Positions 8,911-43,247 of a stretch of DNA of 64,000 nt are shown here, piece by piece. Under the pieces are notes generated by a model. It was given only the letters and a program-made list of their open reading frames with translations, made no database searches and was not told where the DNA came from. This stretch comes from a virus. How positions within the stretch are numbered: the stretch's first letter is position 1; the number at the start of each line of letters is the position of its first letter. The DNA lies in IMG/VR virus record IMGVR_UViG_3300044716_000844, positions 31,587 through 95,586 of that record; one strand, 5' to 3'. The position numbers and the translations under genes were made by a program.

Positions 8911-9876
8911 ATGCCAGTTACAATCAATGGAACAACAGGTATTGCTGGAGCAAACGGCTCTGCTACCACTCCAGCCGTGCAGGGCGGGGACAATAACACT
9001 GGTATCTTCTTCCCAGCAGCTGACACAATTGCTTTTGCTGAGGGTGGGTCCGAGGTCGCGCGGTTTGACAGTAGCGGGAACCTTGTTATTGGTACGACTA
9101 CCGCACTCAAAAGATTGACTACTGCTAGTAGTACTGATGGCGAAGGTATTGCCATTTGGAATCCAAGTACAGGTGCCACCACCGCCAAAAACACAAACCT
9201 CGCATTCTATTCAACAGACACTGTTGGTACAACAAAAGAAACTGCTAGTATTATTACGGTTCTTGCTGATAGTAACGCTGTCAACAGTGCCCTTTCTTTT
9301 AGAACAAGAGGGTCTGACTCTAATACAGAACGCATGAGGATCGCCTCTACTGGTGATATAACTCAACTTAACGCTACATCTGGGGCTGGTGCTATTGTAG
9401 GCGAACAGACGTTCCGCCGGACGGCTGATGGAACTGCAATTGGACCTGCTATCGCTGACTTCTTTGGTGCTACTTCGGCGATATCATTAGAAGCATTGTC
9501 AGTTTACGAGATCATAGCTTATCTAGTGTTTACGAAAACTACTGCCGGCACGATTACCCTTACTATGGCTGCATCATCTGCGCAGAATCGTATGGCAGGA
9601 ATTTATATAGGATCGCCTCTAACTGGTATTGGTGCAGGCAGCCCACAGTGGGGCTCTGCAGGATCACAAGGAGCCACTACAGCCCCGTTTGTCACAACTG
9701 GTTCTCTTACTACTGGAGTTAACCATGTATTCCAATTAAATATGCAAGTACAAACGATACTTACATCAAGCTGGAGATTACAAATTACTAGCTCTGCTGG
9801 TACTGTAACACCTTTAGCTGGTTCATATTACACCGTGAAGAAGATTAGCGCCACAACCGGCACGTTTGTATCATAA
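8911..9876 (+). CDS. Tail fibre protein (321 aa)
   Basis: NTGIFFPAADTIAF / ARFDSSGNLVIGTT / ERMRI fibre motifs. Confidence 0.65.
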   Translation: MPVTINGTTGIAGANGSATTPAVQGGDNNTGIFFPAADTIAFAEGGSEVARFDSSGNLVIGTTTALKRLTTASSTDGEGIAIWNPSTGATTAKNTNLAFYSTDTVGTTKETASIITVLADSNAVNSALSFRTRGSDSNTERMRIASTGDITQLNATSGAGAIVGEQTFRRTADGTAIGPAIADFFGATSAISLEALSVYEIIAYLVFTKTTAGTITLTMAASSAQNRMAGIYIGSPLTGIGAGSPQWGSAGSQGATTAPFVTTGSLTTGVNHVFQLNMQVQTILTSSWRLQITSSAGTVTPLAGSYYTVKKISATTGTFVS

Positions 9877-9885
9877 GGAATAATC

Positions 9886-11559
9886 ATGCCAATCAATTTT
9901 CCAAATACACCAGCAACAAATGACGTGTATCTCGCTCCAAACGGGATCGAATACATTTACACAGGTGCTAAGTGGACGCCCTTTAAACCGGTTGAGCCAA
10001 CAATTGGTGTAATCACTGCTTCGAGCCAACTAGACCTGTCTGCAGGTGGTACAAACCAAAACGTCGTGATCTCTCCATCTGGTTCTGGCAATATTCAACT
10101 TGCTGGAAATGTTGGCATCGGCACCATCACTCCAGCGACCAAGATGGAAGTTTCAGGCGATACGTCTCTCGCCTGCGTCTTTACGGCCACGGTCACGGAC
10201 ACAACCCTTGACGTAACCGCAGTCTCCAGCGGCGCTTTGGCTGTCGGTCAGTATCTGGGTTCTGCAAACGGTCGCGTCCGCATCACTGCGCTCGGCACGG
10301 GTACGGGTGGTGTCGGTACCTACACCATCGACACCAACCAGAATGGTCTTACGTTCAACAGAAGCTACGTTGCTGACCCCACGACAACGCGCTTGGGGAA
10401 CTCGCAGGCATCCATTTTCTCTAACATGCCACACGGGACGCTCGAGTTTGCTTCGGGTGTATCTACCGCCGGGCCGCGGGCCTACATTCAGGCTCAGGTG
10501 GGGCCAAGTACCCTCCCGACCCAGCTGGCAACTATGCTTTTCGGCGTCGGGGCCAATAACGGGGCTGCTCCTCCAAGAACTGCACTGAGCCTTGCTGCAA
10601 CAGGCAGCTTGTTCCCAAGCGGCATATCCCTCGGTCAACCGTCTCTATCTCCACGCAATCTGAACATCGCCCCGGCTACGATTGTATTTGGCGGTCGTTC
10701 CCAGTCCATCTACACGTCAGGTGCCAGCCTTTCCAGCCTCAACTTCAGCACCAGCTACATCGACGCCAGCGTGGAGACCACTGCCGCCTACGGCCAGATC
10801 GGCTACGTCGTAGACAGCTCGATCACCTCGGGCCAGCTCCCGGCGAACTTCTACATCCAGACTCGCAACTCTGGTGGCGTACTAGCTGAACGCTTCCGTA
10901 TCACTGCCACCGGCGATGTAGGTATTGGCACAACATTACCGACTGAAAAACTGGAAGTAGCTGGTAATATCCAAGCAATCGTCAATGGAGGAGCCTCATC
11001 TGTCCTCGCAGTGTCTGGAACATCAACAGACTACTCTTTTCTTCGTCTTCGTCAGACGGCTACAGAAAGTCGCATCGAGAGTGCTGCTGTCGGAACTGGT
11101 ACGGCCTCTCCTATTACATTTTTTGCTGGTGCCAGTGAACGATTACGTATCGCCTTGGCCGGGCAGCTAGGCATCGGCGGGGAGAACTATGGTACGTCGG
11201 GCCAAGTGCTGACATCTGGTGGACCAAGCGCAGCACCGAGTTGGACTACATTGTCATCAGCAGCTCCAACAACTGCTCAAGTTGGTACTGCCACGGCGGG
11301 TTTAGCGGTTGGTGATGTTGGTTCTTATGCACTCCTTTGGCATAATACTACTGCCGCAGAAACTCCAGGGACCACCGTTGCAGGATCAACCCTGCGCTAT
11401 GCTAGTACTACCACAGATGCAACAAACCCACTCGTCGGCTATGGCCCAACAGCTCCCGCTGGTACTTGGAGATGTATGGGCCATACCGCGGTGCAAGGCG
11501 GGGGCACCGCTTATGCATTCACCATATCAAACGTAACAGTCTGGTTAAGGATATCTTAA
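9886..11559 (+). CDS. Tail fibre protein (557 aa)
   Basis: GNVGIGT repeats, GTSGQVLTS motif, C-terminal GTWRCMG...WLRIS tip; followed by a chaperone gene. Confidence 0.75.
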   Translation: MPINFPNTPATNDVYLAPNGIEYIYTGAKWTPFKPVEPTIGVITASSQLDLSAGGTNQNVVISPSGSGNIQLAGNVGIGTITPATKMEVSGDTSLACVFTATVTDTTLDVTAVSSGALAVGQYLGSANGRVRITALGTGTGGVGTYTIDTNQNGLTFNRSYVADPTTTRLGNSQASIFSNMPHGTLEFASGVSTAGPRAYIQAQVGPSTLPTQLATMLFGVGANNGAAPPRTALSLAATGSLFPSGISLGQPSLSPRNLNIAPATIVFGGRSQSIYTSGASLSSLNFSTSYIDASVETTAAYGQIGYVVDSSITSGQLPANFYIQTRNSGGVLAERFRITATGDVGIGTTLPTEKLEVAGNIQAIVNGGASSVLAVSGTSTDYSFLRLRQTATESRIESAAVGTGTASPITFFAGASERLRIALAGQLGIGGENYGTSGQVLTSGGPSAAPSWTTLSSAAPTTAQVGTATAGLAVGDVGSYALLWHNTTAAETPGTTVAGSTLRYASTTTDATNPLVGYGPTAPAGTWRCMGHTAVQGGGTAYAFTISNVTVWLRIS

Positions 11560-32264: not shown

Positions 32265-32683
32265 GATTTACTGCATCAACGTTTGACCTTCTTCATGCTG
32301 GTCATATCTCAATGCTGCGTGAAGCAAAAGAGCACTGTACCTATCTTATCGCTGCTTTGCAGGTAGATCCGTCTATCGACCGCAAAGAGAAGAACAAACC
32401 GGTTCAAACACTCGTAGAACGATACGTACAATTGTCTGCAGTGAAGTATGTAGATGAGATTGTGTGCTATGTGACTGAGCAAGATCTTGTTGACATTCTG
32501 CAGATGTATGATATAAATGTAAGGATACTTGGTGACGAGTACAAAGACAAAGACTTCACGGGTAAAGATGTGTGTCAAGCCCGAGGTATTGATTTGTACT
32601 TTAACAAGCGAGACCATCGCTTCAGTAGTTCTGGTCTACGTAAACGAATTTATGATATGGAGAAACTAAAAGATGTCAACTAA
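32240..32683 (+). CDS. Cytidylyltransferase (TagD / glycerol-3-phosphate cytidylyltransferase-like)
   Basis: FDLLHAGH (HxGH), KYVDE, R...SSSGLR. Confidence 0.85.
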   Translation: MAAPEKIIGFTASTFDLLHAGHISMLREAKEHCTYLIAALQVDPSIDRKEKNKPVQTLVERYVQLSAVKYVDEIVCYVTEQDLVDILQMYDINVRILGDEYKDKDFTGKDVCQARGIDLYFNKRDHRFSSSGLRKRIYDMEKLKDVN

Positions 32684-33095
32684 CTGGGTACAGGATATTA
32701 ACGACATGCATGCTAAGTTCGGCGTGCATAAGTGGGTAGGACAAAAGCTTACTGAAGGTGACATTGAGTCTCTTCGTAAATTCATGCAGTTTCGTATTGA
32801 CTTTCTCAAAGAAGAGTTGGCTGAAACTGAAAAAGCTTTTGGTACCTATGACGCAGAAGAGATCGTCGATGGTCTCATCGATCTTTGTGTTGTGGCTATC
32901 GGTACACTTGATGCTTTTGGTATCGACGCCCACAAAGCTTGGGATGCAGTTCATTCAGCAAACATGAGCAAGGAACCAGGTGTGAAACCTTCACGACCCA
33001 ATCCGCTTGGGCTACCTGATCTGATCAAGCCTGAAGGGTGGACTGCTCCTTCTCATGAAGGTAATCACTCGATCATGGGAATTTTGCACAAATAA
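32673..33095 (+). CDS. MazG-like / PRA-PH-type NTP pyrophosphohydrolase
   Basis: EELAE, EIVDGLIDL, VHSANMSK, KPEGW.AP. Confidence 0.8.
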   Translation: MSTNWVQDINDMHAKFGVHKWVGQKLTEGDIESLRKFMQFRIDFLKEELAETEKAFGTYDAEEIVDGLIDLCVVAIGTLDAFGIDAHKAWDAVHSANMSKEPGVKPSRPNPLGLPDLIKPEGWTAPSHEGNHSIMGILHK

Positions 33096-33528: not shown

Positions 33529-33557
33529 TTGACATTGGCTGAGCGATGTACTATATT
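33529..33557 (+). promoter_or_regulatory. Early sigma70-type promoter with -35 inside a 10 bp inverted repeat
   Basis: TTGACA-N17-TATATT; CGCTCAGCCA/TGGCTGAGCG. Confidence 0.75.
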
Positions 33558-34264: not shown

Positions 34265-34513
34265 ATGGCTACCTTTGATCTTGACGTTCTTCGTGGTCTC
34301 GAAAATCTTTCGCTTGACGAGGCTAAAACTATTTCAATCGACATCATCAAAACCAGTAAGACAAAGCCTGCTGTCATGAATCGATTGGTTAATGACCTCA
34401 CGAAAGCCCCTACCCCGAAAGAAGTCTCACGCATTATGTGGCAGACTTACATGTCTGGAACCGGCTTTGGAACACTCAACTCAGCTTGGAAAAAGCATTA
34501 TAAAAGTGTATAA
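34265..34513 (+). CDS. Hypothetical protein (82 aa)
   Basis: Operonic ORF. Confidence 0.65.
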   Translation: MATFDLDVLRGLENLSLDEAKTISIDIIKTSKTKPAVMNRLVNDLTKAPTPKEVSRIMWQTYMSGTGFGTLNSAWKKHYKSV

Positions 34514-35088
34514 TGATGATTTGTAAAGTACCAGAAAAAATTACCTTTGTACTAACTGAAGATCAGAAGAACCATATTCTTCAAATGGCAAAGGAAATTC
34601 ATGCCTGTCCTGTGCGCTCGCGGGGCAGGCCTTATGACATGATCTATAGAGCTGTACGCAATGGTGCTATTCTTGAATATGCTCTTGTAGCTCAAGGCGC
34701 TACTAAGAACGACGCCACATTCGATCATACTGATCCACTCACATACTGTTGGGATGTATTCTGGGATGGTCTTCGTGCAGAAGTGAAGTGTTTTTACTTC
34801 GATGAAAATACCCGATGGGTATCATTCCCATTACGGTTTGTGCAAACATTTATAAACACTACGCGACGAGGCAGAAATCTTGTTGACATAATCATCTTTG
34901 GGTATTATACTGAGAGTAAGGATGGCGAGATCACTGCAAAATGGCGCCTTGTAGCGCCAAGTGATACGTTCGAGTCACGACTGCGAAAATGCAATAGCGA
35001 ATATAAAAGTAGCTATGATCAGTACACCGGTCAGCTTAAGTACTTCTATTCTCATCCGGCTGAGCCGCGAGCAATTTATATTAAGTGA
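34513..35088 (+). CDS. Hypothetical protein, possible PD-(D/E)xK nuclease fold
   Basis: GAILE ... WDV ... AEVK spacing. Confidence 0.4.
   Translation: MMICKVPEKITFVLTEDQKNHILQMAKEIHACPVRSRGRPYDMIYRAVRNGAILEYALVAQGATKNDATFDHTDPLTYCWDVFWDGLRAEVKCFYFDENTRWVSFPLRFVQTFINTTRRGRNLVDIIIFGYYTESKDGEITAKWRLVAPSDTFESRLRKCNSEYKSSYDQYTGQLKYFYSHPAEPRAIYIK
34883..34911 (+). promoter_or_regulatory. Sigma70-type promoter inside the CDS, upstream of the DNA-modification cluster
   Basis: TTGACA-N17-TATACT. Confidence 0.7.
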
Positions 35089-35094
35089 GGTTTC

Positions 35095-35646
35095 ATGATT
35101 CTAATTATCGAAGGTATGGATCGTTGTGGTAAGTCGACACTCGTCGAACAACTGCGTAAACGATACTTTTTGAATAACACTCGAGTGCTCGTTCATCACT
35201 CGTCGTCTCCGCCAAAGGTGGTTAATCCGAATGAGTGGGAAGTGCATCACTACAAGTCACTACTTGATGCGAGCTACATGCTGAACTATGCTCATGACTT
35301 TGACGTAATCTATGATCGCTTCCACCTCGGTGCTATCGTCTATGGCAAGAAGTATCGCAACGCAGATCCAGAAGACATCTATGCAATCGAAAACATGTAC
35401 ATCCATCCTAATGATGAGATTGCTCTCGTTCTTCTGACTGATCATACCTCTGCGATCCTTGAACGTGACGACGATGACTCACTCGAATCGTCTGCTGCAG
35501 AGTTTGATGAAACTCGCGAAGCTTTTGAGCAAGCATTCAAACGATCAATCATTCCCAACAAACTTCACATCAATATCACTGAGAACGGTGGATTCATCAA
35601 TACTTATGATACCGTTACTCAATTTCTAGACGGAGTAAGAAAATGA
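35095..35646 (+). CDS. Thymidylate-kinase-like dNMP kinase
   Basis: P-loop IIEGMDRCGKST, YDRF motif. Confidence 0.75.
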   Translation: MILIIEGMDRCGKSTLVEQLRKRYFLNNTRVLVHHSSSPPKVVNPNEWEVHHYKSLLDASYMLNYAHDFDVIYDRFHLGAIVYGKKYRNADPEDIYAIENMYIHPNDEIALVLLTDHTSAILERDDDDSLESSAAEFDETREAFEQAFKRSIIPNKLHINITENGGFINTYDTVTQFLDGVRK

Positions 35647-36314
35647 AACAGTACAAAGTAAAAGACATTCGTATTGCACTTCGTGACAAGCTACACAAAC
35701 AAGACTTTGTTACAGACAAAACTGGTGTGAAGACTATTGAACTTATGGGTACGAGCTTCATCGCTGACGAAGATGCTATCTTCGGCCAAGTAAATTGGGA
35801 CTATGTTGAGCGTGAACTCGAGTGGTATAAGTCTATGTCGCTTAACGTGAACGACATTCCGGGTGGTGTAAAGCAAGAGACAAATCCGCCTCAGATCTGG
35901 ATGTCTGTTGCTGATCCTGATGGTCTTATCAATTCAAACTATGGTTGGGCAATCTGGCACGAAGATAACTGTGAACAGTATGAACACTGTGTTGCAGAGC
36001 TGAAGAAGAATCGTGACTCTCGTCGTGCAATTATGATTTACACTCGGCCACAAATGTGGTATGATTACAACAAGAACGGTCGTTCTGACTTCATGTGTAC
36101 AAACTCTGTGCAGTATCTTGTTCGTAATGATAAAGTCCATGCCGTTGTACAGATGCGATCGAACGATGCTATCTTTGGTTACAAGAATGACCGTGCATGG
36201 CAAGAGCATGTATTGAATAAAGTTGCTCAAGATACAGGTTATGCCCAAGGCGATATCATCTGGAACGCCGGAAGCCTTCACATCTATTCTCGACATTTCG
36301 GGTTGGTTGAATGA
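35643..36314 (+). CDS. gp42: dCMP hydroxymethylase (T4 gp42-like, thymidylate-synthase fold)
   Basis: INSNYGWAIW, SDFMCTNSVQY, MRSNDAIFGYKND.AW (Asp at the cytosine-specificity position), WNAGSLHIYSRHF closely match recalled T4 gp42. Confidence 0.88.
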   Translation: MKQYKVKDIRIALRDKLHKQDFVTDKTGVKTIELMGTSFIADEDAIFGQVNWDYVERELEWYKSMSLNVNDIPGGVKQETNPPQIWMSVADPDGLINSNYGWAIWHEDNCEQYEHCVAELKKNRDSRRAIMIYTRPQMWYDYNKNGRSDFMCTNSVQYLVRNDKVHAVVQMRSNDAIFGYKNDRAWQEHVLNKVAQDTGYAQGDIIWNAGSLHIYSRHFGLVE

Positions 36315-36763
36315 ATAAGTGGGATCATCGTTATCTTAAACTCGCTTATCAGATCGCTCAGTGGTCGAAAGATCCATCGAGTAAGATCGGTGCGGTCACC
36401 GTTGGATCCAAGGGTCAAGTCTTGTCTCAAGGATTCAACGGATTCCCTCGTGGCCTGAAAGATGATCCTGCTCGGCTGAATGATAGAGAAACGAAGTACC
36501 GTTATGTAGTTCATGCCGAAATGAATGCTATCTATAACGCTACTTACAATGGTGTATCTCTTGACGGTGCGACATTGTATGTCTATGGATTGCCTACTTG
36601 CTTTGAATGTGCTAAGGGTGTTATCCAAGTTGGCATTCGGAGAGTGGTCATGCCAAACCAAAAAATCGATGGTAAGTGGCTTGATTCATGGATGCAAAGC
36701 GAATCTTTCTTTACAGAAGCCGGAGTAGATTTTGACTTCATCGATTTTGATCCTGGGCGTTAA
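36311..36763 (+). CDS. cd: dCMP deaminase
   Basis: SKDPS, GFNG.PRG, HAEMNAI, PTC..C zinc motif. Confidence 0.92.
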   Translation: MNKWDHRYLKLAYQIAQWSKDPSSKIGAVTVGSKGQVLSQGFNGFPRGLKDDPARLNDRETKYRYVVHAEMNAIYNATYNGVSLDGATLYVYGLPTCFECAKGVIQVGIRRVVMPNQKIDGKWLDSWMQSESFFTEAGVDFDFIDFDPGR

Positions 36764-37097
36764 TCCCTCGAGTGGTAAACCGAACAAAACAAGTGCAACC
36801 ATCCAGCGACTTAACCGCTGGATGGACTTTCTTCATGTGAAACATTATTCGTTTACAAATGTGATCCATACGACTGGAAAGTATACACAAGATCTTGTTG
36901 ACTTTGAAGCATTGAGAACGTTCACAACTGATGCTAACAAGATCATCGCTCTAGGCCCCTTTGTTTCGAAATCACTAAATAGAGCACACATCAACCATTT
37001 TACACTTCCTCATCCGTCGCCTCTGAATCGACAGTTGAATGATAAGACCTTTGAACACGAATGTCTTATGAAGTGCAAAGCATTTATCGGAGAATGA
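36732..37097 (+). CDS. Uracil-DNA-glycosylase-fold small protein
   Basis: ILGVNPS, IIALG, LPHPSPLNR motifs. Confidence 0.6.
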   Translation: MTSSILILGVNPSSGKPNKTSATIQRLNRWMDFLHVKHYSFTNVIHTTGKYTQDLVDFEALRTFTTDANKIIALGPFVSKSLNRAHINHFTLPHPSPLNRQLNDKTFEHECLMKCKAFIGE

Positions 37098-37098
37098 T

Positions 37099-37959
37099 AT
37101 GAAAGTACTCATAACTGGTGCAAGTGGATATATCGGATCACACATCGTAAAAGCACTCTATAACAAAGGGTATACCATCGATACGCTCGACCAACGTATC
37201 ACTCAGAACACTGGGATGATACAACATATGGTGAATCGTATTCATCATGGAGATATCACTGAACATATCAACATCACTACTCATTACGACGCAGTGATTC
37301 ATTGTGCTGCACTTATTTCTGTCGAAGAGTCGATGAGAATGCCGGAGTCTTACTACGATGTAAATACAAATGGTACGCTTAAACTTCTTCAAAGTCTCAA
37401 GTATAATCATTTCATCTTTGCATCTACCGGTGGTGCATTTGACCCTATTTCGCCATATGCTAAATCAAAGATCATTGCTGAAGAAGCTGTTCGGCAGATC
37501 GCGGCCGAGTATTCAATCTTCAGGTTTTTCAACGTTGCAGGTAACGACGGAGAGCTTGGCCAACCTTATCCGGCGAGCCACATCATTCGAATTGCTGCAG
37601 AAGCTGCAGCTGGCAAGCGAGACAAGATGGTAATCTTTGGAAATGATTATGATACCCCTGATGGCACATGTATTCGTGACTATGTACATGTTGTCGATCT
37701 AGCTGAAGCCATTGTTCGAAGTGTTCCTCTTCCTGCAAATTCAAAATATGAATGCATCGGTTCTGGCCGAGGATTCTCGAATCTTGAAGTCATAAATACA
37801 ATGAAGGAAGTCAGCGGTATCGACTTTCCTGTAGAATTCGGTCCACGACGTTCTGGTGATCCAGCGAAACTTCTTGTTGACACCGTATCAAAGTATGTTA
37901 AGATTGATCATGATTTGAAAGATATGTGCCTCTCGGCTTACACTATGGAGTTGAAATGA
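37099..37959 (+). CDS. galE: UDP-glucose 4-epimerase-like NAD-dependent epimerase
   Basis: TGASGYIGSH, YAKSK (YxxxK), RFFNVAG, TPDGTCIRDYVHVVDLA, RRSGDPA. Confidence 0.88.
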   Translation: MKVLITGASGYIGSHIVKALYNKGYTIDTLDQRITQNTGMIQHMVNRIHHGDITEHINITTHYDAVIHCAALISVEESMRMPESYYDVNTNGTLKLLQSLKYNHFIFASTGGAFDPISPYAKSKIIAEEAVRQIAAEYSIFRFFNVAGNDGELGQPYPASHIIRIAAEAAAGKRDKMVIFGNDYDTPDGTCIRDYVHVVDLAEAIVRSVPLPANSKYECIGSGRGFSNLEVINTMKEVSGIDFPVEFGPRRSGDPAKLLVDTVSKYVKIDHDLKDMCLSAYTMELK

Positions 37960-39059
37960 AAAAGATTCTGATTACCGGTATGAACCGGCTGCAGTGCAAT
38001 AAAGACTTTTATTTGAAGCAGCAATTGCAAGTTGTCCCATCCCACTATTCGGTTATTCGTTGCCTTGAAGATATGGGATATGAAGTTGAACAGAGAGAAG
38101 TTGCTCTCGGTGAAGATCTGTCGTCGTATGATGAAGTGATCGTTTACATCCACAGCATTCAAGCGTTCTGCCAACACATTTGGTCTGGTCTATACGCTGT
38201 TGCAGCTCGGCCGAATTGCATCATTGCTTTCGATGACTGGCAATTCAATCAGATCTATGGCGCTATCCAGACGTACCACGACGACCTCGTAGCAGGTGAT
38301 GAGTCAGTTTATCGTGACTATCTCTTCGATCTGTGGGCAGGTAAAGAAGATCGCGAGACTGTTAAGAAGTACCATCAGTCATACATTGATGCATGTAAGA
38401 TCGTTGTATCGAAACAGAACCGGTTACTTGTCAGTGCTTTCGACGGTGGTGATATCTCCTTGCTGAACCTTGGTTGGGATGAGTCGAAAGTTCATGTATT
38501 CAATCCAAACCCCTACCACCTGAATCGTCGTGCCGACAATGGCTATGGCACCGGTGTAGTTACATCAACTCTTGATTCGTTCTTTAATGAAGAGCCTGCG
38601 AAGCTTTTCCGTTGGAACTTTGCATCTCTTGTTCAAGAGAAGACTCGCAAATGGCTCAAAGCCCAGAACCCTGAGAAGTGGCAATGGGAAATCGAGTACT
38701 TCGGTGCTAAGCGTGGTAAGTACAAGTCCGAACGTAAGACTGAACCTGAGATGGTGAAAGTCTTTGAGCAACAGTGGGGTTGCTTGATGCCAGGCTATTT
38801 CCATGCAGGTTCTGGTTGGTGGCGCGCTCGTCCTTTGCAGGTTGCTGATGCTGGATCGATCATTATTGGTGACAAGCCTGAGATGATGGTGTATTATAAG
38901 GATGAAGCCATTGCTGGCTTGAGAGTACAGGACATTGAAGCCATGGACTTGACTCAACTGAAAGCTACAGCTGCAGCTCAAAAAGAAGCGCTGTATGCTA
39001 CTCATCCTCTCGATAAAGCAGTTCAGCGTGAAGAACTGAGAAAGATCCTTGAAGCATGA
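37956..39059 (+). CDS. DNA glycosyltransferase, T4 beta-glucosyltransferase-like (GT-B)
   Basis: Colinear similarity to recalled T4 BGT segments (VPS..EMG..V, YD..IV...SI..F, IEYFG, R..Q/E...A...IIGD); ATGA-coupled to galE and glf. Confidence 0.65.
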   Translation: MKKILITGMNRLQCNKDFYLKQQLQVVPSHYSVIRCLEDMGYEVEQREVALGEDLSSYDEVIVYIHSIQAFCQHIWSGLYAVAARPNCIIAFDDWQFNQIYGAIQTYHDDLVAGDESVYRDYLFDLWAGKEDRETVKKYHQSYIDACKIVVSKQNRLLVSAFDGGDISLLNLGWDESKVHVFNPNPYHLNRRADNGYGTGVVTSTLDSFFNEEPAKLFRWNFASLVQEKTRKWLKAQNPEKWQWEIEYFGAKRGKYKSERKTEPEMVKVFEQQWGCLMPGYFHAGSGWWRARPLQVADAGSIIIGDKPEMMVYYKDEAIAGLRVQDIEAMDLTQLKATAAAQKEALYATHPLDKAVQREELRKILEA

Positions 39060-40066
39060 AGAAGATTCTTGTAGTTGGTGCTGGCTTGTCTGGCGCCACT
39101 ATTGCTCGTGAGCTTGCAGAAACTGAGCAATACAAAGTTTGGGTATTTGACAAGCGTGGCCACGTTGCTGGTAATGCTTATGACTACACTAACATTCACA
39201 ATATTCGTGTACATGAGTATGGCCCTCACCTGTTTCATACAAACAATAAAGAGGTGTTTGATTACCTTGGCCGCTTTACTGAATGGGTTGAGTACAAGCA
39301 TAAGGTGAAAGCTCAGCTCGATGACGGTCGATATGTCACACTTCCTGTGAACAAAGAGACCAAAGAGATCGTTGGCGAAGAGAATGTTCTCGACATCTTC
39401 TTCCGTCCTTACACAAAGAAGATGTGGGGAATGGAACTTGACGAATTGAATCCTGACATTATCAACCGTGTACCGATTCGTAATGATATGAACGAGCTAT
39501 ACTTCCCTGATGATCAGTATCAAGCCATGCCGAAAGATGGCTATACTGAAATGGTTGCAAACATGCTTGACCACCCAAACATCATTGTTAAACTTAACAC
39601 TGAGTATTCAAAAGACTACGATCATCTATTTGATCATATCTTTAACTCGATGCCGATCGATGAATACTTTGACTTTGTCCATGGCGAACTTCCGTATCGT
39701 TCGATCAAGTTTCATACTACAACACTGCCAAATCCTCACGTACTTCCATCAGCAACAGTCAACTTCACGAATGATGGTATCTACACTCGTGTAACTGAAT
39801 GGAAGAAACTGCCTCATCATGGAGACAATAAATATTGCACAACACTGACTTACGAAGAACCGTGCGATTACCGTGATAACAACCGAGAACGGTTCTATCC
39901 AGTGAAAGACCGTGATGGTAAGAACAGAGAGTTGTATGAGAAGTACAAATCCATGACTCCGAGTAATACGACCTTCATTGGTCGTTGTGGCCTCTATGCT
40001 TATCTTGATCTTCACCAAGCAGTCAACTCGGCCTTAGCAATAGTGAGAAAATTTAAGAATGAGTAA
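39056..40066 (+). CDS. glf: UDP-galactopyranose mutase
   Basis: VVGAGLSG FAD motif, GNAYD, HEYGPHLFHT, YTKKMWG, YRS, TRVTE.K, FYP, GR...YAYLD. Confidence 0.9.
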   Translation: MKKILVVGAGLSGATIARELAETEQYKVWVFDKRGHVAGNAYDYTNIHNIRVHEYGPHLFHTNNKEVFDYLGRFTEWVEYKHKVKAQLDDGRYVTLPVNKETKEIVGEENVLDIFFRPYTKKMWGMELDELNPDIINRVPIRNDMNELYFPDDQYQAMPKDGYTEMVANMLDHPNIIVKLNTEYSKDYDHLFDHIFNSMPIDEYFDFVHGELPYRSIKFHTTTLPNPHVLPSATVNFTNDGIYTRVTEWKKLPHHGDNKYCTTLTYEEPCDYRDNNRERFYPVKDRDGKNRELYEKYKSMTPSNTTFIGRCGLYAYLDLHQAVNSALAIVRKFKNE

Positions 40067-41261
40067 CTTCACCCACGCGTCTATCGTTCCTCTTATTGGC
40101 GGCGAAACTATTGGATCGGAAAGAGCCTTTGGCGCTCCTCCTATTCACTTCATGTCATATGAAGCTTTTGCTGCAAACGATTCTCATATTCTGAACCACT
40201 ATGAGAATCGTATTCCATATTACGTTCTTGATAAGGGCCAAGCACCTTCCGAGCGCGCAGATGTGGTTGCGTCCGTGTGCCCGTGCGCAGGACTATCTAT
40301 GATGTCTCATGGCTATGGCGACCACAATGAAAACAACAAGTGGATGGACATTACCGCAAAGTACGTCCTTGGCGAATATAAGCCAAAAGTGTTATGGGGA
40401 GAGAATGCTCCAGGTTTTGCTGGCAAGATCGGTAAGAACGTTCGTGAGAACCTGAAAAAGATCGGACAAGAGAACGGCTACACAATGTCGGTCTATCGTA
40501 CAAAGTCTTTGCTTCATGGTGTTCCACAGATTCGTGAACGTTCATTCTACTTCTTCTGGAAAGGTACGCAGACTCCACTCCTGAATTACTATAATCGCCC
40601 ATACACTCCTATTGAGGAAGTCATTCGTAATGTGAAGTCGAACTTCCAGCACGAGCCGATCAACAAGAAGAAGCCATCGGAAAATCCATACTACAAGTAC
40701 ATCCTTGAAGCAATTCATGGTGGTCGTACTCACGTACAACATTCACATGAGATCGATCCATCATCTGCTCGTGGTAATGACTCATTTAGTTATATTGAGA
40801 AGTCTGGCCATAATTATAAGCAAGTTGCTGAATGGATGGAAGCCAATGGATTCTCTGAAGAAGTCGAGAAGTGCCTCTACAAGTACAATAAGCTTGAAGA
40901 AGGCGGAAGCATCATGCGCCGGGGTGTAATTGTCCCTAAGGATCGCATCGGCGCTTTTGTAGGACACTATCCGATCATGCTTACACATCCAGACGAAGAT
41001 CGCTTCATTACCTACCGCGAAGCCATGACTATTATGGGCCTTCCAGAGAACTTTGAACTTGTGAATGCTAGCCCGAAGAATGCTAACCATATTTGCCAAA
41101 ACGTTCCAGTTCAGACTGCGACTGACATGGCGACAGAAGTTCTTGCTGTGTTAAATGGCCAAAGAAAAATGGTTGACACCGATTACATTTTGCAGTATAA
41201 TGGAACTCAGACAGAGGAATTCACCGCTGCTGAAAATACACTTGAGAGCTTTTTTGAATGA
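40059..41261 (+). CDS. C5-cytosine DNA methyltransferase homolog
   Basis: Motif IV CPCAGLS, VI GENAP, VIII PQIRERSF, IX RFITYREAM..MGLP, X QNVPV; atypical motif I (VPLIGG). Confidence 0.8.
   Translation: MSNFTHASIVPLIGGETIGSERAFGAPPIHFMSYEAFAANDSHILNHYENRIPYYVLDKGQAPSERADVVASVCPCAGLSMMSHGYGDHNENNKWMDITAKYVLGEYKPKVLWGENAPGFAGKIGKNVRENLKKIGQENGYTMSVYRTKSLLHGVPQIRERSFYFFWKGTQTPLLNYYNRPYTPIEEVIRNVKSNFQHEPINKKKPSENPYYKYILEAIHGGRTHVQHSHEIDPSSARGNDSFSYIEKSGHNYKQVAEWMEANGFSEEVEKCLYKYNKLEEGGSIMRRGVIVPKDRIGAFVGHYPIMLTHPDEDRFITYREAMTIMGLPENFELVNASPKNANHICQNVPVQTATDMATEVLAVLNGQRKMVDTDYILQYNGTQTEEFTAAENTLESFFE
41173..41201 (+). promoter_or_regulatory. Perfect sigma70 promoter inside the 3' end of the MTase gene
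   Basis: TTGACA-N17-TATAAT. Confidence 0.8.
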
Positions 41262-41896
41262 ACCAACACTTTATCTTTGACTTTGAAACGCTTGGTCAAG
41301 ATGTGTTTCAAATCCCAATGCTTGAATGCTCGTATGTAGTATTCGATTGGGGTCGTTTTACATCTGACAATCCTTACACACTTGAAGAACTGGTACGTCT
41401 TTCTCGTAAAGACAAGTTAGAAATGGTTCATCAGGTTCAAGAGCATGGAGCTAAATACACTCAACGCGATCTTGATTGGTGGCTATCACAATCTGAAGAA
41501 GCAAAGAAAGTACTACGGCCGAGTAAATCAGACGTTAGTGCTGAAGTGTTTATTAATAACTTCATTGATTATCTAAAAGAAGCTGGTAAGATTAACTACT
41601 GGTGGTCTCGTTCAAATTCATTCGATCCCATCATTCTTCAGCGTTGGGGTACCATTGTTGGTCGTCAAGAAGAAATCGGTGAATTGTTAAAGTTCTGGCT
41701 CGTACGAGATACTCGTACATGGATCGATGCAAAGCTAAACTTCCCAAAGAAGAACGGCTTCGTTCCCTTAGCAGATGAAGAGTATTGGAACAACACATTC
41801 GTACACCATGATAGCCGGTTTGATATTGCTGCAGATATTCTTCGCCTTCAGACCATCGCTCGCCTTGAAAATGATATGGAACAACCTACACGATGA
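41258..41896 (+). CDS. dexA: 3'-5' exonuclease, DexA-like (DEDD)
   Basis: FDFETLG, WSRSNSFD, RDTRT, HDSRFDIAAD. Confidence 0.8.
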   Translation: MNQHFIFDFETLGQDVFQIPMLECSYVVFDWGRFTSDNPYTLEELVRLSRKDKLEMVHQVQEHGAKYTQRDLDWWLSQSEEAKKVLRPSKSDVSAEVFINNFIDYLKEAGKINYWWSRSNSFDPIILQRWGTIVGRQEEIGELLKFWLVRDTRTWIDAKLNFPKKNGFVPLADEEYWNNTFVHHDSRFDIAADILRLQTIARLENDMEQPTR

Positions 41897-42315
41897 ATAA
41901 ATATAATGAAACCGATACAGGCGCTGTGCGTGAAGCACTCGGCATTCCTTACACCCGACATGTTCCACTTGAAGCAGTAGCTGCTGGTGCTGCTTCTCTT
42001 GAATACGGTGCTAAGAAGTATTCCGATCGTAATTGGGAGAAGGGTCTCCCATGGCAGCAAATGATTGACAGCCTAAAAAGGCATGTTGAAGATTTTGAAC
42101 GCCGTCGCGACTATGACGACGGTGAAGACGGTTCAGATCTTCATCAGGTGTGTATGATCATGGCTTCTGCTATGATGCTATCCGCGTCAGTTATTCGCGG
42201 TATCGGGGTAGACGACAGGCTTCCGGCTGTAGATGAGCATGCACTATCTGCAAAGCAGTGTGCAAAGTTTATCAAAGGACAACTTGAAAATGCAAGACCA
42301 GTGAAAGGTAAATAA
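41893..42315 (+). CDS. dNTP diphosphohydrolase (dATP/dGTP diphosphohydrolase N-terminal, DUF5664-like)
   Basis: TGAVRE, YGAKKYSDRNWEKG, SLKRH, SDLH. Confidence 0.75.
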   Translation: MNKYNETDTGAVREALGIPYTRHVPLEAVAAGAASLEYGAKKYSDRNWEKGLPWQQMIDSLKRHVEDFERRRDYDDGEDGSDLHQVCMIMASAMMLSASVIRGIGVDDRLPAVDEHALSAKQCAKFIKGQLENARPVKGK

Positions 42316-43247
42316 TGGAAATCAAAATTGAAATTGAAAAACTGAGAAAGAAAAAGCTCTTTATCGCTACTCCCATGTACGGTGGGCAGTGTTCTGGCTT
42401 GTATACTAAATCAACTAACGACCTCGCTATGAGCTGTGCCAAGTATGGTATTGACGTAAAATTCTACTACTTGTTCAATGAGTCGCTTATCACTCGTGCT
42501 CGTAACTATTGCGTAGATGAGTTTCTTCGTTCTGATTATACTCATCTCATGTTCATTGACTCGGATATTGGATTCCATTACAAGGATGTATATACTCTTA
42601 TGCATCTCTGTGAGTCTACAGACGAATATGGTGTAATCACCGGTGCTTATCCAAAGAAGACTATTGCTTGGGAAAAGATTCGTACCGCTGTTGAAATGGG
42701 ATTTGCCGATCCGAATCCGTTCCAGCTGGAAAACTTTGTAGGCGATTACGTCTTCAATCCAGATGAAAATTCTACTTCGTTTAGAATTGACGAACCAGTA
42801 AAGATCCGTGAAGGTGGTACTGGCTTCATGATGATTCATCGTGATGTATTTGACAAGTACGCTAAAGCCTATCCTGAGCTGAGTTATATTCCCGACCATG
42901 TTCGTACTGAACACTTTGACGGTAGCCGCGAGATCACTGCTTTCTTTGATTGTGTCATTGATCCGAAGAGTAAGCGCTATCTGTCAGAAGACTATATGTT
43001 TAGTCAATACGCTCGTGCAATTGGTATTAACGTATGGCTTTGCCCGTGGATCCAGTTGAAGCACGTAGGCTCTTATACCTTCGGTGGTTCGCTTTCTGCA
43101 ATGGCTGCGATTCAATCGTCTCCTACCGCAAGTGCTGCGTCGAACCAGAAAAACTATTTGACACCTGCACCAAAGAGTGATATAGTAGACTCTGTACAAC
43201 AACCAAACCGCCAACAGCGGCGTGCTGCAATGAAAAAAGGTAAATGA
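42315..43247 (+). CDS. GT-A-fold glycosyltransferase-like protein
   Basis: IATPMYGG, NESLITRARN, MFIDSDI (DxD), GTGFMMI, YLSEDY. Confidence 0.65.
   Translation: MEIKIEIEKLRKKKLFIATPMYGGQCSGLYTKSTNDLAMSCAKYGIDVKFYYLFNESLITRARNYCVDEFLRSDYTHLMFIDSDIGFHYKDVYTLMHLCESTDEYGVITGAYPKKTIAWEKIRTAVEMGFADPNPFQLENFVGDYVFNPDENSTSFRIDEPVKIREGGTGFMMIHRDVFDKYAKAYPELSYIPDHVRTEHFDGSREITAFFDCVIDPKSKRYLSEDYMFSQYARAIGINVWLCPWIQLKHVGSYTFGGSLSAMAAIQSSPTASAASNQKNYLTPAPKSDIVDSVQQPNRQQRRAAMKKGK
43158..43186 (+). promoter_or_regulatory. Sigma70-type promoter for gp45 (inside upstream CDS)
   Basis: TTGACA-N17-TATAGT with TGn. Confidence 0.75.

Follow-up and report, generated by a model that had tools for sequence, protein, structure and literature searches.

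A gene cluster in a T4-like phage that may attach galactofuranose to hydroxymethylcytosine

Which restriction, type IV and CRISPR systems are able to attack a phage depends on the sugars that it places on hydroxymethylcytosine (hmC), and glycosylation of hmC also serves as a tool, for example in the mapping of 5-hydroxymethylcytosine (5hmC) with β-glucosyltransferase (BGT). T4, which combines gp42 with BGT, uses UDP-glucose (UDP-Glc) of the host as sugar donor. Glycosyltransferases (GTs) that depend on an epimerase and act on 5hmC have been demonstrated in clusters that contain a methyltransferase (MT) and a TET enzyme, the 5mYOX clusters (Burke et al. 2023 preprint, 10.1101/2023.12.21.572611). 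The phages RB69, DLP3 and RL38J1 produce 5-hydroxy-dCMP, not hydroxymethyl-dCMP (hm-dCMP), via thymidylate synthase (TS) homologs with a D169N substitution (PMC13326640, 2026), and for Rhizobium phage RL38J1 (Pootjesviridae) a phage UDP-galactopyranose mutase (Glf) has been proposed to supply UDP-galactofuranose (UDP-Galf) for galactosylated 5-hydroxycytosine (5hoC) (PMC13326640, NAR 2026). Aeromonas phages 25, 31 and 44RR have gene 42 but no known glucosyltransferase (PMC2993671, 2010). Here we analyse a gene cluster in a 64,000-nt stretch of viral DNA (the window; bases 31587-95586 of the 95.6 kb IMG/VR viral contig IMGVR_UViG_3300044716_000844, whose completeness is estimated at 55%), in which a glf gene directly follows the gene for a BGT-like glycosyltransferase, GT1, downstream of a gp42-type gene. 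From these genes we consider it somewhat more probable than not that the module makes galactofuranosyl-hmC from UDP-Galf supplied by the phage itself.

The contig belongs to a T4-like phage: genes for gp23, UvsW, a gp55-like protein, gp47 and gp46 lie upstream of the cluster, and those for gp45, gp44 and gp62 lie downstream. A nucleotide-level search of a database of cultured phages returned only two matches of 250 nt, both within gene 42. The cluster (35095-43247; coordinates without a locus name are window positions, and all window genes described here lie on the + strand) consists of eleven open reading frames (ORFs), mostly joined by stop/start overlaps of 1-8 nt. An initial annotation, made from the letters of the sequence, had described this contiguous run, and all eleven ORFs are indeed present. 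Family searches agree with its calls of a nucleotide kinase (Tmk-like by family), a dCMP deaminase, a GalE-like epimerase, Glf, a C5-cytosine DNA methyltransferase (C5-MTase), a DexA-like nuclease and a dNTP diphosphohydrolase (dGTP_diPhyd_N family); its gp42-like dCMP hydroxymethylase is borne out by the signature residues, and its BGT-like transferase at the level of the fold. We propose that the cluster is a module for cytosine hypermodification, at the nucleotide level and at the DNA level, of a T4-like phage. What is observed directly, namely the families of the enzymes, the signature of the hydroxymethylase, the BGT-like fold of the transferase and the linkage of the genes, is described in turn.

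The ORF at 35643..36314 encodes a gp42-type dCMP hydroxymethylase (5hm-dCMP synthase; PF00303, E 1.8e-18) that is 61% identical to T6 gp42 over 98% of its length, with likewise close relatives among many Tequatrovirus gp42 proteins. In TS homologs, N177D goes with specificity for dCMP, L143D/E with the access of water that hydroxymethylation requires, and D169N is diagnostic of 5hoC synthases (PMC13326640). We compared the window protein with E. coli ThyA, T6 gp42 and RB69 gp48 in an alignment numbered after E. coli ThyA, whose catalytic Cys is C146. It carries D at both 177 and 143, as dCMP specificity and hydroxymethylation demand, and its four signature residues (D143/C146/D169/D177) are those of T6 gp42, while RB69 gp48 has N169. 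Aeromonas phage 25, Erwinia phage FBB1 and about 70 related loci share this signature, with C146 invariant. Given this signature and the 61% identity, the base of this phage is predicted to be 5-hydroxymethylcytosine. The 5-hydroxycytosine chemistry of RB69 was ruled out, since D169 is kept in the window protein and in all 70+ relatives examined.

GT1 (37956..39059) matches no Pfam family; it is a BGT-like GT-B glycosyltransferase by fold and is predicted to act on hmC in DNA. An AlphaFold2 model, built from 33 homologs (mean pLDDT 90.6), shows a GT-B fold of two Rossmann domains and about 350 aa that can be superposed on BGT. T4 BGT was the top match in a Foldseek search with this model (E 3.6e-7), and DNA glucosyltransferases are its top structural matches. 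At the profile level the similarity of the two is marginal: hhalign gave a probability of 9% (E 0.0035) and aligned only the N-terminal 61 residues. BGT relies on a catalytic Asp in its N-domain (D100) and on Arg residues of its C-domain that bind the UDP diphosphate; candidate counterparts in GT1 are D94 and R290/R292. D94 of GT1 is invariant in 62 sequences, including outgroups of 27% identity, and directly follows the strand 89-92; in the model this is the position where an inverting GT-B enzyme would carry its base. The C-domain motif W288/R290/R292/Q295/D298 is invariant in the same 62 sequences, again with the outgroups. Homology to the arabinosyltransferase gp46/47 of RB69 was rejected, as the profiles show no similarity, and relatives in RL38J1-like phages were likewise rejected, with no tblastn match in Rhizobium or Agrobacterium phages. 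Because the phage encodes GalE and Glf beside the transferase, the donor of GT1 is probably one other than UDP-Glc of the host, and adjacency to gp42 and TET genes points to hmC as its acceptor.

Glf (39056..40066) is a short form of UDP-galactopyranose mutase (UGM) of 336 aa, recognised by PF03275 (188.5 bits, E 1.5e-55), TIGR00031 (285.0 bits) and PF13450 (64.9 bits), and it aligns with D. radiodurans UGM at E 5.7e-77. Its FAD-binding GxGxxG motif aligns to UGM structures, and the Arg and Tyr residues at the substrate positions are identical to those of 1wam (phmmer) and invariant in the alignment of phage Glf proteins. We take the substrate residues of K. pneumoniae UGM to be R174, R280, Y155, Y185, Y314 and Y349. 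Compared with bacterial UGM structures, the window protein and the Glf at 8998-10008 of locus L005 are short, about 40 residues of the helical domain being missing. The GalE-like UDP-hexose 4-epimerase (37099..37959) is also a short form (286 aa); TIGR01179 is its best family (232.8 bits), GalE structures in the PDB match at E 8e-53, and an alignment with E. coli GalE (34% identity) places its GxxGxxG motif in register and T/Y/K at the positions of S124/Y149/K153. With strong family scores and aligned catalytic and substrate residues, both enzymes look competent. The galE gene is confined to a subset of the glf-positive loci, and in other loci a different short-chain dehydrogenase/reductase (SDR) lies just downstream of glf; phages with neither presumably draw on UDP-Gal of the host. 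Among bacteria, E. coli K-12 has a glf gene of its own, located in the O-antigen cluster.

We then asked how GT1 and glf are arranged in other phages. Relatives of GT1 were found in at least 262 IMG/VR stretches, from which 80 loci were fetched, and relatives of glf in at least 578 stretches; the glf counts refer to those 70 distinct viral loci of glf whose upstream sequence was long enough. The gene order conserved across the 80 GT1 loci reads TS42-(cd)-(UDG-like)-[galE]-GT1-[glf]-C5MT-(dexA)-GT2-gp45-gp44-gp62. GT1 is present in 62 of the 70 glf loci, and in 60 of them it lies directly upstream, its end no more than 150 nt from the start of glf. The initial annotation had made its reading depend on linkage of glf to gp42-like genes, and such linkage is what we observed, a gp42-type gene being present in 41 of the 52 glf loci that have at least 4.5 kb of upstream sequence. 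The combination of gp42, BGT-like transferase and glf that it suggested looking for was found repeatedly. Among cultured phages it occurs in Erwinia phage FBB1 and in the Tulanevirus group around Aeromonas phage 25, whose carriers include Aes508, Aes012, phiAS4 and AS-gz; there the glf-GT1 pair adjoins motA and the gp42-type enzyme is encoded elsewhere in the genome.

Glf also occurs in other settings. In phage C48C1 (L005, OQ984149.1; 6561-10008) a gene for a Tet_JBP dioxygenase of 472 aa is followed directly by those for a GT1 homolog and Glf, and neither a gp42-type TS nor a homolog of the window C5-MTase was found in that genome when looked for. Dioxygenases of this type are the second established source of hydroxymethyl-pyrimidines in DNA; this cassette may represent a system for glycosylated 5-hydroxymethyluracil (5hmU), akin to base J, or for 5hmC. 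Two T4-like loci without GT1 (L164, 5823-8005; L132, 3417-8026) have glf beside the gene for a TET-associated glycosyltransferase (TAGT; PF20691, E 1e-40), between the genes for DNA polymerase and uvsX, and T4 has its beta-gt in the same slot near uvsX. A further locus (L113, 4941-10959), without GT1 or gp42, encodes a GT8-like protein, a methyltransferase, Glf, an SDR epimerase and a GT25-like protein near PhoH, a context that looks more like glycan or LPS-type chemistry than DNA modification.

The loci in which GT1 occurs without glf were informative. In a quick, midpoint-rooted tree of GT1 they form a single clade (L054-L060, L062-L065, L069 and L071-L091; SH-aLRT 95), in which GT1 directly abuts the C5-MTase gene. 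A single change suffices to explain the distribution, and none of 500 label shuffles gave a value as low; each of the three outgroups carries glf. The residues that separate the glf-positive from the glf-less proteins cluster at 282-297, beside the W288/R290/R292/Q295/D298 motif; A223, P293 and A297, common to all glf-positive GT1 proteins including the outgroups, correspond to S, V and V in the clade without glf. This pattern fits one loss of glf together with a change of the donor pocket, and the clade-specific substitutions suggest a different sugar donor, although all of this reflects no more than a single evolutionary event. No glf was found elsewhere on five of the glf-less contigs, which are fragments, 25-61% complete.

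From these data we infer, in the following scheme, the acceptor and the donor of the sugar, its ring form, its configuration at the anomeric carbon and what the modification does for the phage. The gp42-type enzyme would convert dCMP to 5-hydroxymethyl-dCMP, as its signature residues and its 61% identity to T6 gp42 suggest, and the Tmk-like kinase together with kinases of the host would raise this to hm-dCTP, to be polymerised into the phage DNA. GalE would turn UDP-Glc into UDP-galactopyranose (UDP-Galp) and Glf would contract the ring to give UDP-Galf; the two families are evident, and the flux through them is what the scheme supposes. Acting on duplex DNA, GT1 would then move Galf from UDP-Galf onto the hydroxymethyl group of hmC; the product would be galactofuranosyl-hmC, and the consumption of UDP-Galf would pull the unfavourable equilibrium of the mutase. 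Judging from T4, DNA modified in this way would be protected against restriction and CRISPR as well as against nucleases that are specific for hmC or glucosyl-hmC.

Several readings compete with this one. GT1 might glycosylate hmC with a pyranose, taken from UDP-Glc or from the UDP-Galp made by GalE, with Glf serving another step, such as the addition of a second sugar by another transferase, or being dispensable. T4 BGT, the best structural match of GT1, uses UDP-Glc, relatives about 50% identical to GT1 manage without glf in loci where they abut the C5-MTase gene, and a second glycosyltransferase, of GT-A fold, is encoded 3 kb downstream. We nevertheless consider a pyranose unlikely: the coupling of glf to GT1 holds for 60 of 70 loci and recurs in three genomic contexts that are unrelated to one another, the glf-less proteins are one derived clade with changes beside the conserved C-domain motif, and the second glycosyltransferase is present irrespective of glf, also in phages without gp42. 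It is far less probable that GalE, GT1 and Glf do not modify DNA at all and instead remodel a surface glycan of the host or glycosylate virion proteins, their place in the cluster being a matter of synteny only. GT-A and GT-B folds carry no information on the acceptor, phage or prophage records of Streptococcus and Lactobacillus contain Glf but gave no GT1 match, and five viral glf loci have LPS-like transferases of GT8 or GT25 type in place of GT1. GT1 itself, however, persistently adjoins enzymes that make hydroxymethyl-pyrimidines, mostly of gp42 type and in C48C1 of TET/JBP type, and its top structural matches are DNA glucosyltransferases. Moreover, since Aeromonas phage 25 has gene 42 without a known glucosyltransferase (PMC2993671), GT1 is the obvious candidate there.

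Two other sugars would leave the scheme intact except for the donor. If the GalE-like protein were a 4-epimerase of UDP-xylose (UDP-Xyl) and UDP-arabinopyranose (UDP-Arap), Glf could contract UDP-Arap and the product would be arabinofuranosyl-hmC; enzymes of the UGM family can accept UDP-Arap. That galE is limited to a subset of glf-positive loci would agree with this, and arabinosylated cytosines are known from RB69 and DLP3 (PMC13326640). The epimerase, however, scores best as a UDP-glucose 4-epimerase, neither a UDP-xylose synthase nor arabinose genes are among the family matches of the cluster, and the known arabinose route of phages runs through different enzymes (isomerase, phosphatase, kinase and uridylyltransferase). 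We hold arabinofuranose to be slightly more doubtful even than a role in glycans. An N-acetylated sugar seems the least probable of all. Some GalE enzymes, and one Glf homolog of Campylobacter, handle acetylated substrates, so that a mutase acting like UDP-N-acetylgalactopyranose mutase (UNGM) could yield N-acetylgalactofuranosyl-hmC from UDP-N-acetylglucosamine (UDP-GlcNAc) or UDP-N-acetylgalactosamine (UDP-GalNAc), and pairs of epimerase and GT are known to put N-acetylhexosamine (HexNAc) on 5hmC (10.1101/2023.12.21.572611). The best matches of the window Glf are nevertheless canonical UGMs from Deinococcus, Klebsiella and E. coli, and the Campylobacter structure 4mo2 ranks 11th.

Some observations also weigh against galactofuranosyl-hmC. 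DNA modification in this phage is a prediction from its genes. A furanose donor is no obligate feature of the GT1 family, as relatives of about 50% identity occur without glf. Glf scores below the equivalog cut-off of NCBIfam TIGR00031 (285.0 against 303.75 bits) and GalE below that of TIGR01179 (232.8 against 262.3 bits), and both are shorter than the bacterial enzymes. Homologs of Glf, moreover, are able to use UDP-Arap or UDP-GalNAc. A dCTPase of the gp56 type was not found on the 95.6 kb contig, which at 55% completeness does not amount to absence from the phage, and an intact-looking C5-MTase accompanies GT1 in 36 of 53 distinct loci; its presence is puzzling, as DNA fully substituted with hmC offers it no obvious substrate. 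These last two points together hint that the replacement of cytosine is partial or that the chemistry is more complex.

The central idea of the initial annotation, a furanose transferred to hmC, survived every test available; its interpretation as a whole may be called partly supported, the furanose product being still a prediction. The wider picture, to which we lean a little less than to doubt, is that galactofuranosyl-5hmC is a real and undescribed base, the first furanose on hmC, made by a new and widespread family of Glf-dependent GT1 enzymes, with the GT1-Glf cassette reused on TET/JBP products as in C48C1 and Glf also pairing with TAGT. If galactofuranosyl-5hmC is indeed made, the C5-MTase-like enzyme conserved along with GT1 may take part in this chemistry in a non-canonical way.

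The C5-MTase-like protein (40059..41261; PF00145, E 2.6e-19) was aligned with M.HhaI over motifs IV-VIII; CPC for motif IV (PC), GENA for motif VI (ENV) and PQIRER for motif VIII (QxRxR) are visible, and motif I is degenerate (PLIGGE). It is co-conserved with the gp42-type gene and GT1 among loci L012-L168. Its nearest homologs in cultured phages are those of relatives of cyanophage S-TIM5 and of a Pseudoalteromonas phage. Its family, as first called, thus stands with its motifs, and a role in the pathway could not be assigned.

Most of the remaining genes concern nucleotide pools and host DNA. The Tmk-like P-loop nucleotide kinase (35095..35646; PF02223 Thymidylate_kin, 27.9 bits; phrog_761, E 2.7e-12), a candidate hm-dCMP kinase, is 23% identical to RB69p045 and among the loci fetched has homologs only in the closest relatives and in L035. 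It is followed, after the gp42-type gene, by the dCMP deaminase (36311..36763; PF00383, E 7e-20; phrog_174, E 4e-44). Farther downstream lie a DexA-like (Rv2179c-like) 3'-5' exonuclease (41258..41896; PF16473, E 2e-12; phrog_255, E 1.9e-26) and a MazZ-like (dGTP_diPhyd_N) NTP diphosphohydrolase (41893..42315; PF18909, E 1.1e-17), the latter found, among the loci fetched, only in the closest relatives. Directly upstream of the kinase and gp42-type genes is a candidate DenB-like endonuclease IV (34513..35088; phrog_1360, E 8.7e-7); among relatives of T4 the distribution of denB matches that of gene 42 (PMC2993671). A MazG/PRA-PH-like NTP pyrophosphohydrolase (32673..33095; PF01503, E 7e-10; phrog_671, E 3.6e-24) is a candidate enzyme for the clearing of dCTP, and most related loci keep its gene upstream of that for the TS homolog. 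An identity of either the 32673 product (by BLASTP) or the 41893 product with the dCTPase of T4 was rejected, as neither resembles gp56. We propose that the deaminase, the DexA-like and DenB-like nucleases and the two NTP pyrophosphohydrolases provide nucleotide-pool and host-DNA functions of the T4 type.

The last gene of the cluster, GT2 (42315..43247), encodes a glycosyltransferase of GT-A fold without a Pfam family (phrog_1574; model pLDDT 78). Its DSD motif is invariant, and its fold matches STIV A197 (E 2.8e-8), collagen galactosyltransferase and Mimivirus R699. Homologs lie upstream of gp45 in Caulobacter phage Cr30 (L093, 4956-5804) and Stenotrophomonas phage DLP6 (L094, 4956-5813), in neither of which a gp42-type TS was found, and GT2 is also present in the glf-less loci. 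A role of GT2 as the transferase specific for hmC or Galf was rejected on these grounds, and by its position GT2 is a syntenic backbone gene upstream of gp45; the GT-A fold assigned to it initially holds, and we do not assign it to the modification pathway. Synteny of the phrog_1574 GT-A gene extends to phiM12-like phages, among others, and one cyanophage and one pelagiphage encode it as well. The tblastn matches of GT2 all start at residue 16 of the window ORF.

A small conserved protein (36732..37097), first annotated as having a uracil-DNA glycosylase (UDG) fold, is a weak case: its match to the UDG superfamily (PF03167) is sub-threshold, at 22.4 bits against a cut-off of 24.3, and a search of the PDB gave no match. 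Homologs lie between cd and GT1 in many loci, the Atlas form starts at residue 31, and the Atlas leads are weak. Outside the cluster, between gp46 and the MazG-like gene, the segment 31560..32683 encodes a PMM-like HAD-IIB protein (PF03332, E 1.7e-23) and a nucleotidyltransferase of the cytidylyltransferase family resembling RfaE domain II (PF01467, E 4e-12; TIGR02199, 74.9 bits, under the cut-off). The closest relatives are the only loci with both genes; L053 has the nucleotidyltransferase by itself, and L132 has a CTP_transf_like gene near glf. The two window proteins may form a second sugar-nucleotide branch, for another sugar. No match to PF12851 (Tet_JBP) was obtained on the 95.6 kb contig, which is 55% complete, and a control search gave no signal either.

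As for regulatory sequences, the intragenic sigma70 promoter proposed at 34883 corresponds to a real sequence match (TTGACA-17-TATACT, 34883-34911, + strand, 11/12, within the DenB-like ORF), whose function as a promoter is unproven because the total of promoter-like sites in the region equals the shuffled expectation. A perfect 12/12 consensus (TTGACA-17-TATAAT) lies at 41173-41201, inside the 3' end of the C5-MTase gene and just upstream of the DexA-like gene, and other 11/12 matches lie at 33529 and 43158. A terminator-like, GC-rich hairpin of 10 bp (36799-36825) is placed between the end of the dCMP deaminase gene and the likely later start of the UDG-like ORF (~36822).

If galactofuranosyl-hmC is confirmed, furanose-bearing hmC would constitute a new chemical class of DNA hypermodification, and GT1 a new family of DNA glycosyltransferases with a non-standard donor. 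It would also explain why Aeromonas phages 25, 31 and 44RR have gene 42 without a known glucosyltransferase (PMC2993671). Cultured Aeromonas and Erwinia phages carry the cassette, so that the prediction is directly testable, and its abundance in environmental T4-like contigs suggests ecological relevance.

Among the systems with which the cluster can be compared is that of T4. The two share a gp42-type enzyme with identical signature residues (61% identity to T6 gp42), a transferase of GT-B fold, which in the window phage has T4 BGT as best structural match, and the DenB-like, dCMP deaminase and DexA-like companions. They differ in that sequence similarity between GT1 and BGT is marginal at most, and in that a co-conserved C5-MTase-like gene is present and no gp56-type dCTPase was found on the 55% complete contig. 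T4 takes its donor from the host, whereas the window phage encodes GalE and Glf next to the transferase and probably uses another. RB69 and DLP3 resemble the window phage as T4-like phages with a TS homolog, a Tmk-like kinase (RB69p045, 23%), a phage-made NDP-sugar and GT-B transferases; their base is 5hoC, made by a flavin-dependent D169N enzyme, their sugar pathway is another one and their transferases are unrelated. The contrast first drawn with the arabinose system of RB69 is outdated, as RB69 makes arabosyl-5-hydroxycytosine via a D169N TS homolog (PMC13326640).

The 5mYOX clusters share with the window phage the principle that a phage epimerase tailors the sugar-nucleotide pool for a GT acting on 5hmC in DNA, and some of their GTs are BGT-like GT-B enzymes. 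C48C1, with its TET/JBP-GT1-Glf arrangement, is comparable to them. In these clusters hmC arises after replication through MT and TET, whereas in the window phage it would come from the nucleotide pool through an enzyme of gp42 type, and neither mutase nor furanose occurs in the text of that study (10.1101/2023.12.21.572611).

RL38J1 offers a parallel for the donor. It too combines a phage Glf with a TS-superfamily enzyme acting on C5 of dCMP, a Tmk-like kinase and DNA glycosyltransferases, and its base-proximal sugar is galactose, a galactose-type sugar being also what we predict here. Its TS homolog is a D169N 5-hydroxy-dCMP synthase and its sugar is linked by an ether directly to C5, whereas the window enzyme keeps D169; its Glf (gp84) is encoded far from the TS and GT genes (gp214-216), whereas the window glf abuts GT1; and its transferases are of a different family. 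In the literature searched we found no report of Galf-modified hmC, nor of a glf-GT1 pair in Aeromonas phages. The components do have precedents: Glf and UDP-Galf have been proposed for the 5hoC of RL38J1, and epimerase-GT pairs are known on 5hmC. Set beside these systems, the hypothesis of galactofuranosyl-hmC is credible and concerns a widespread module, less unprecedented than had been assumed.

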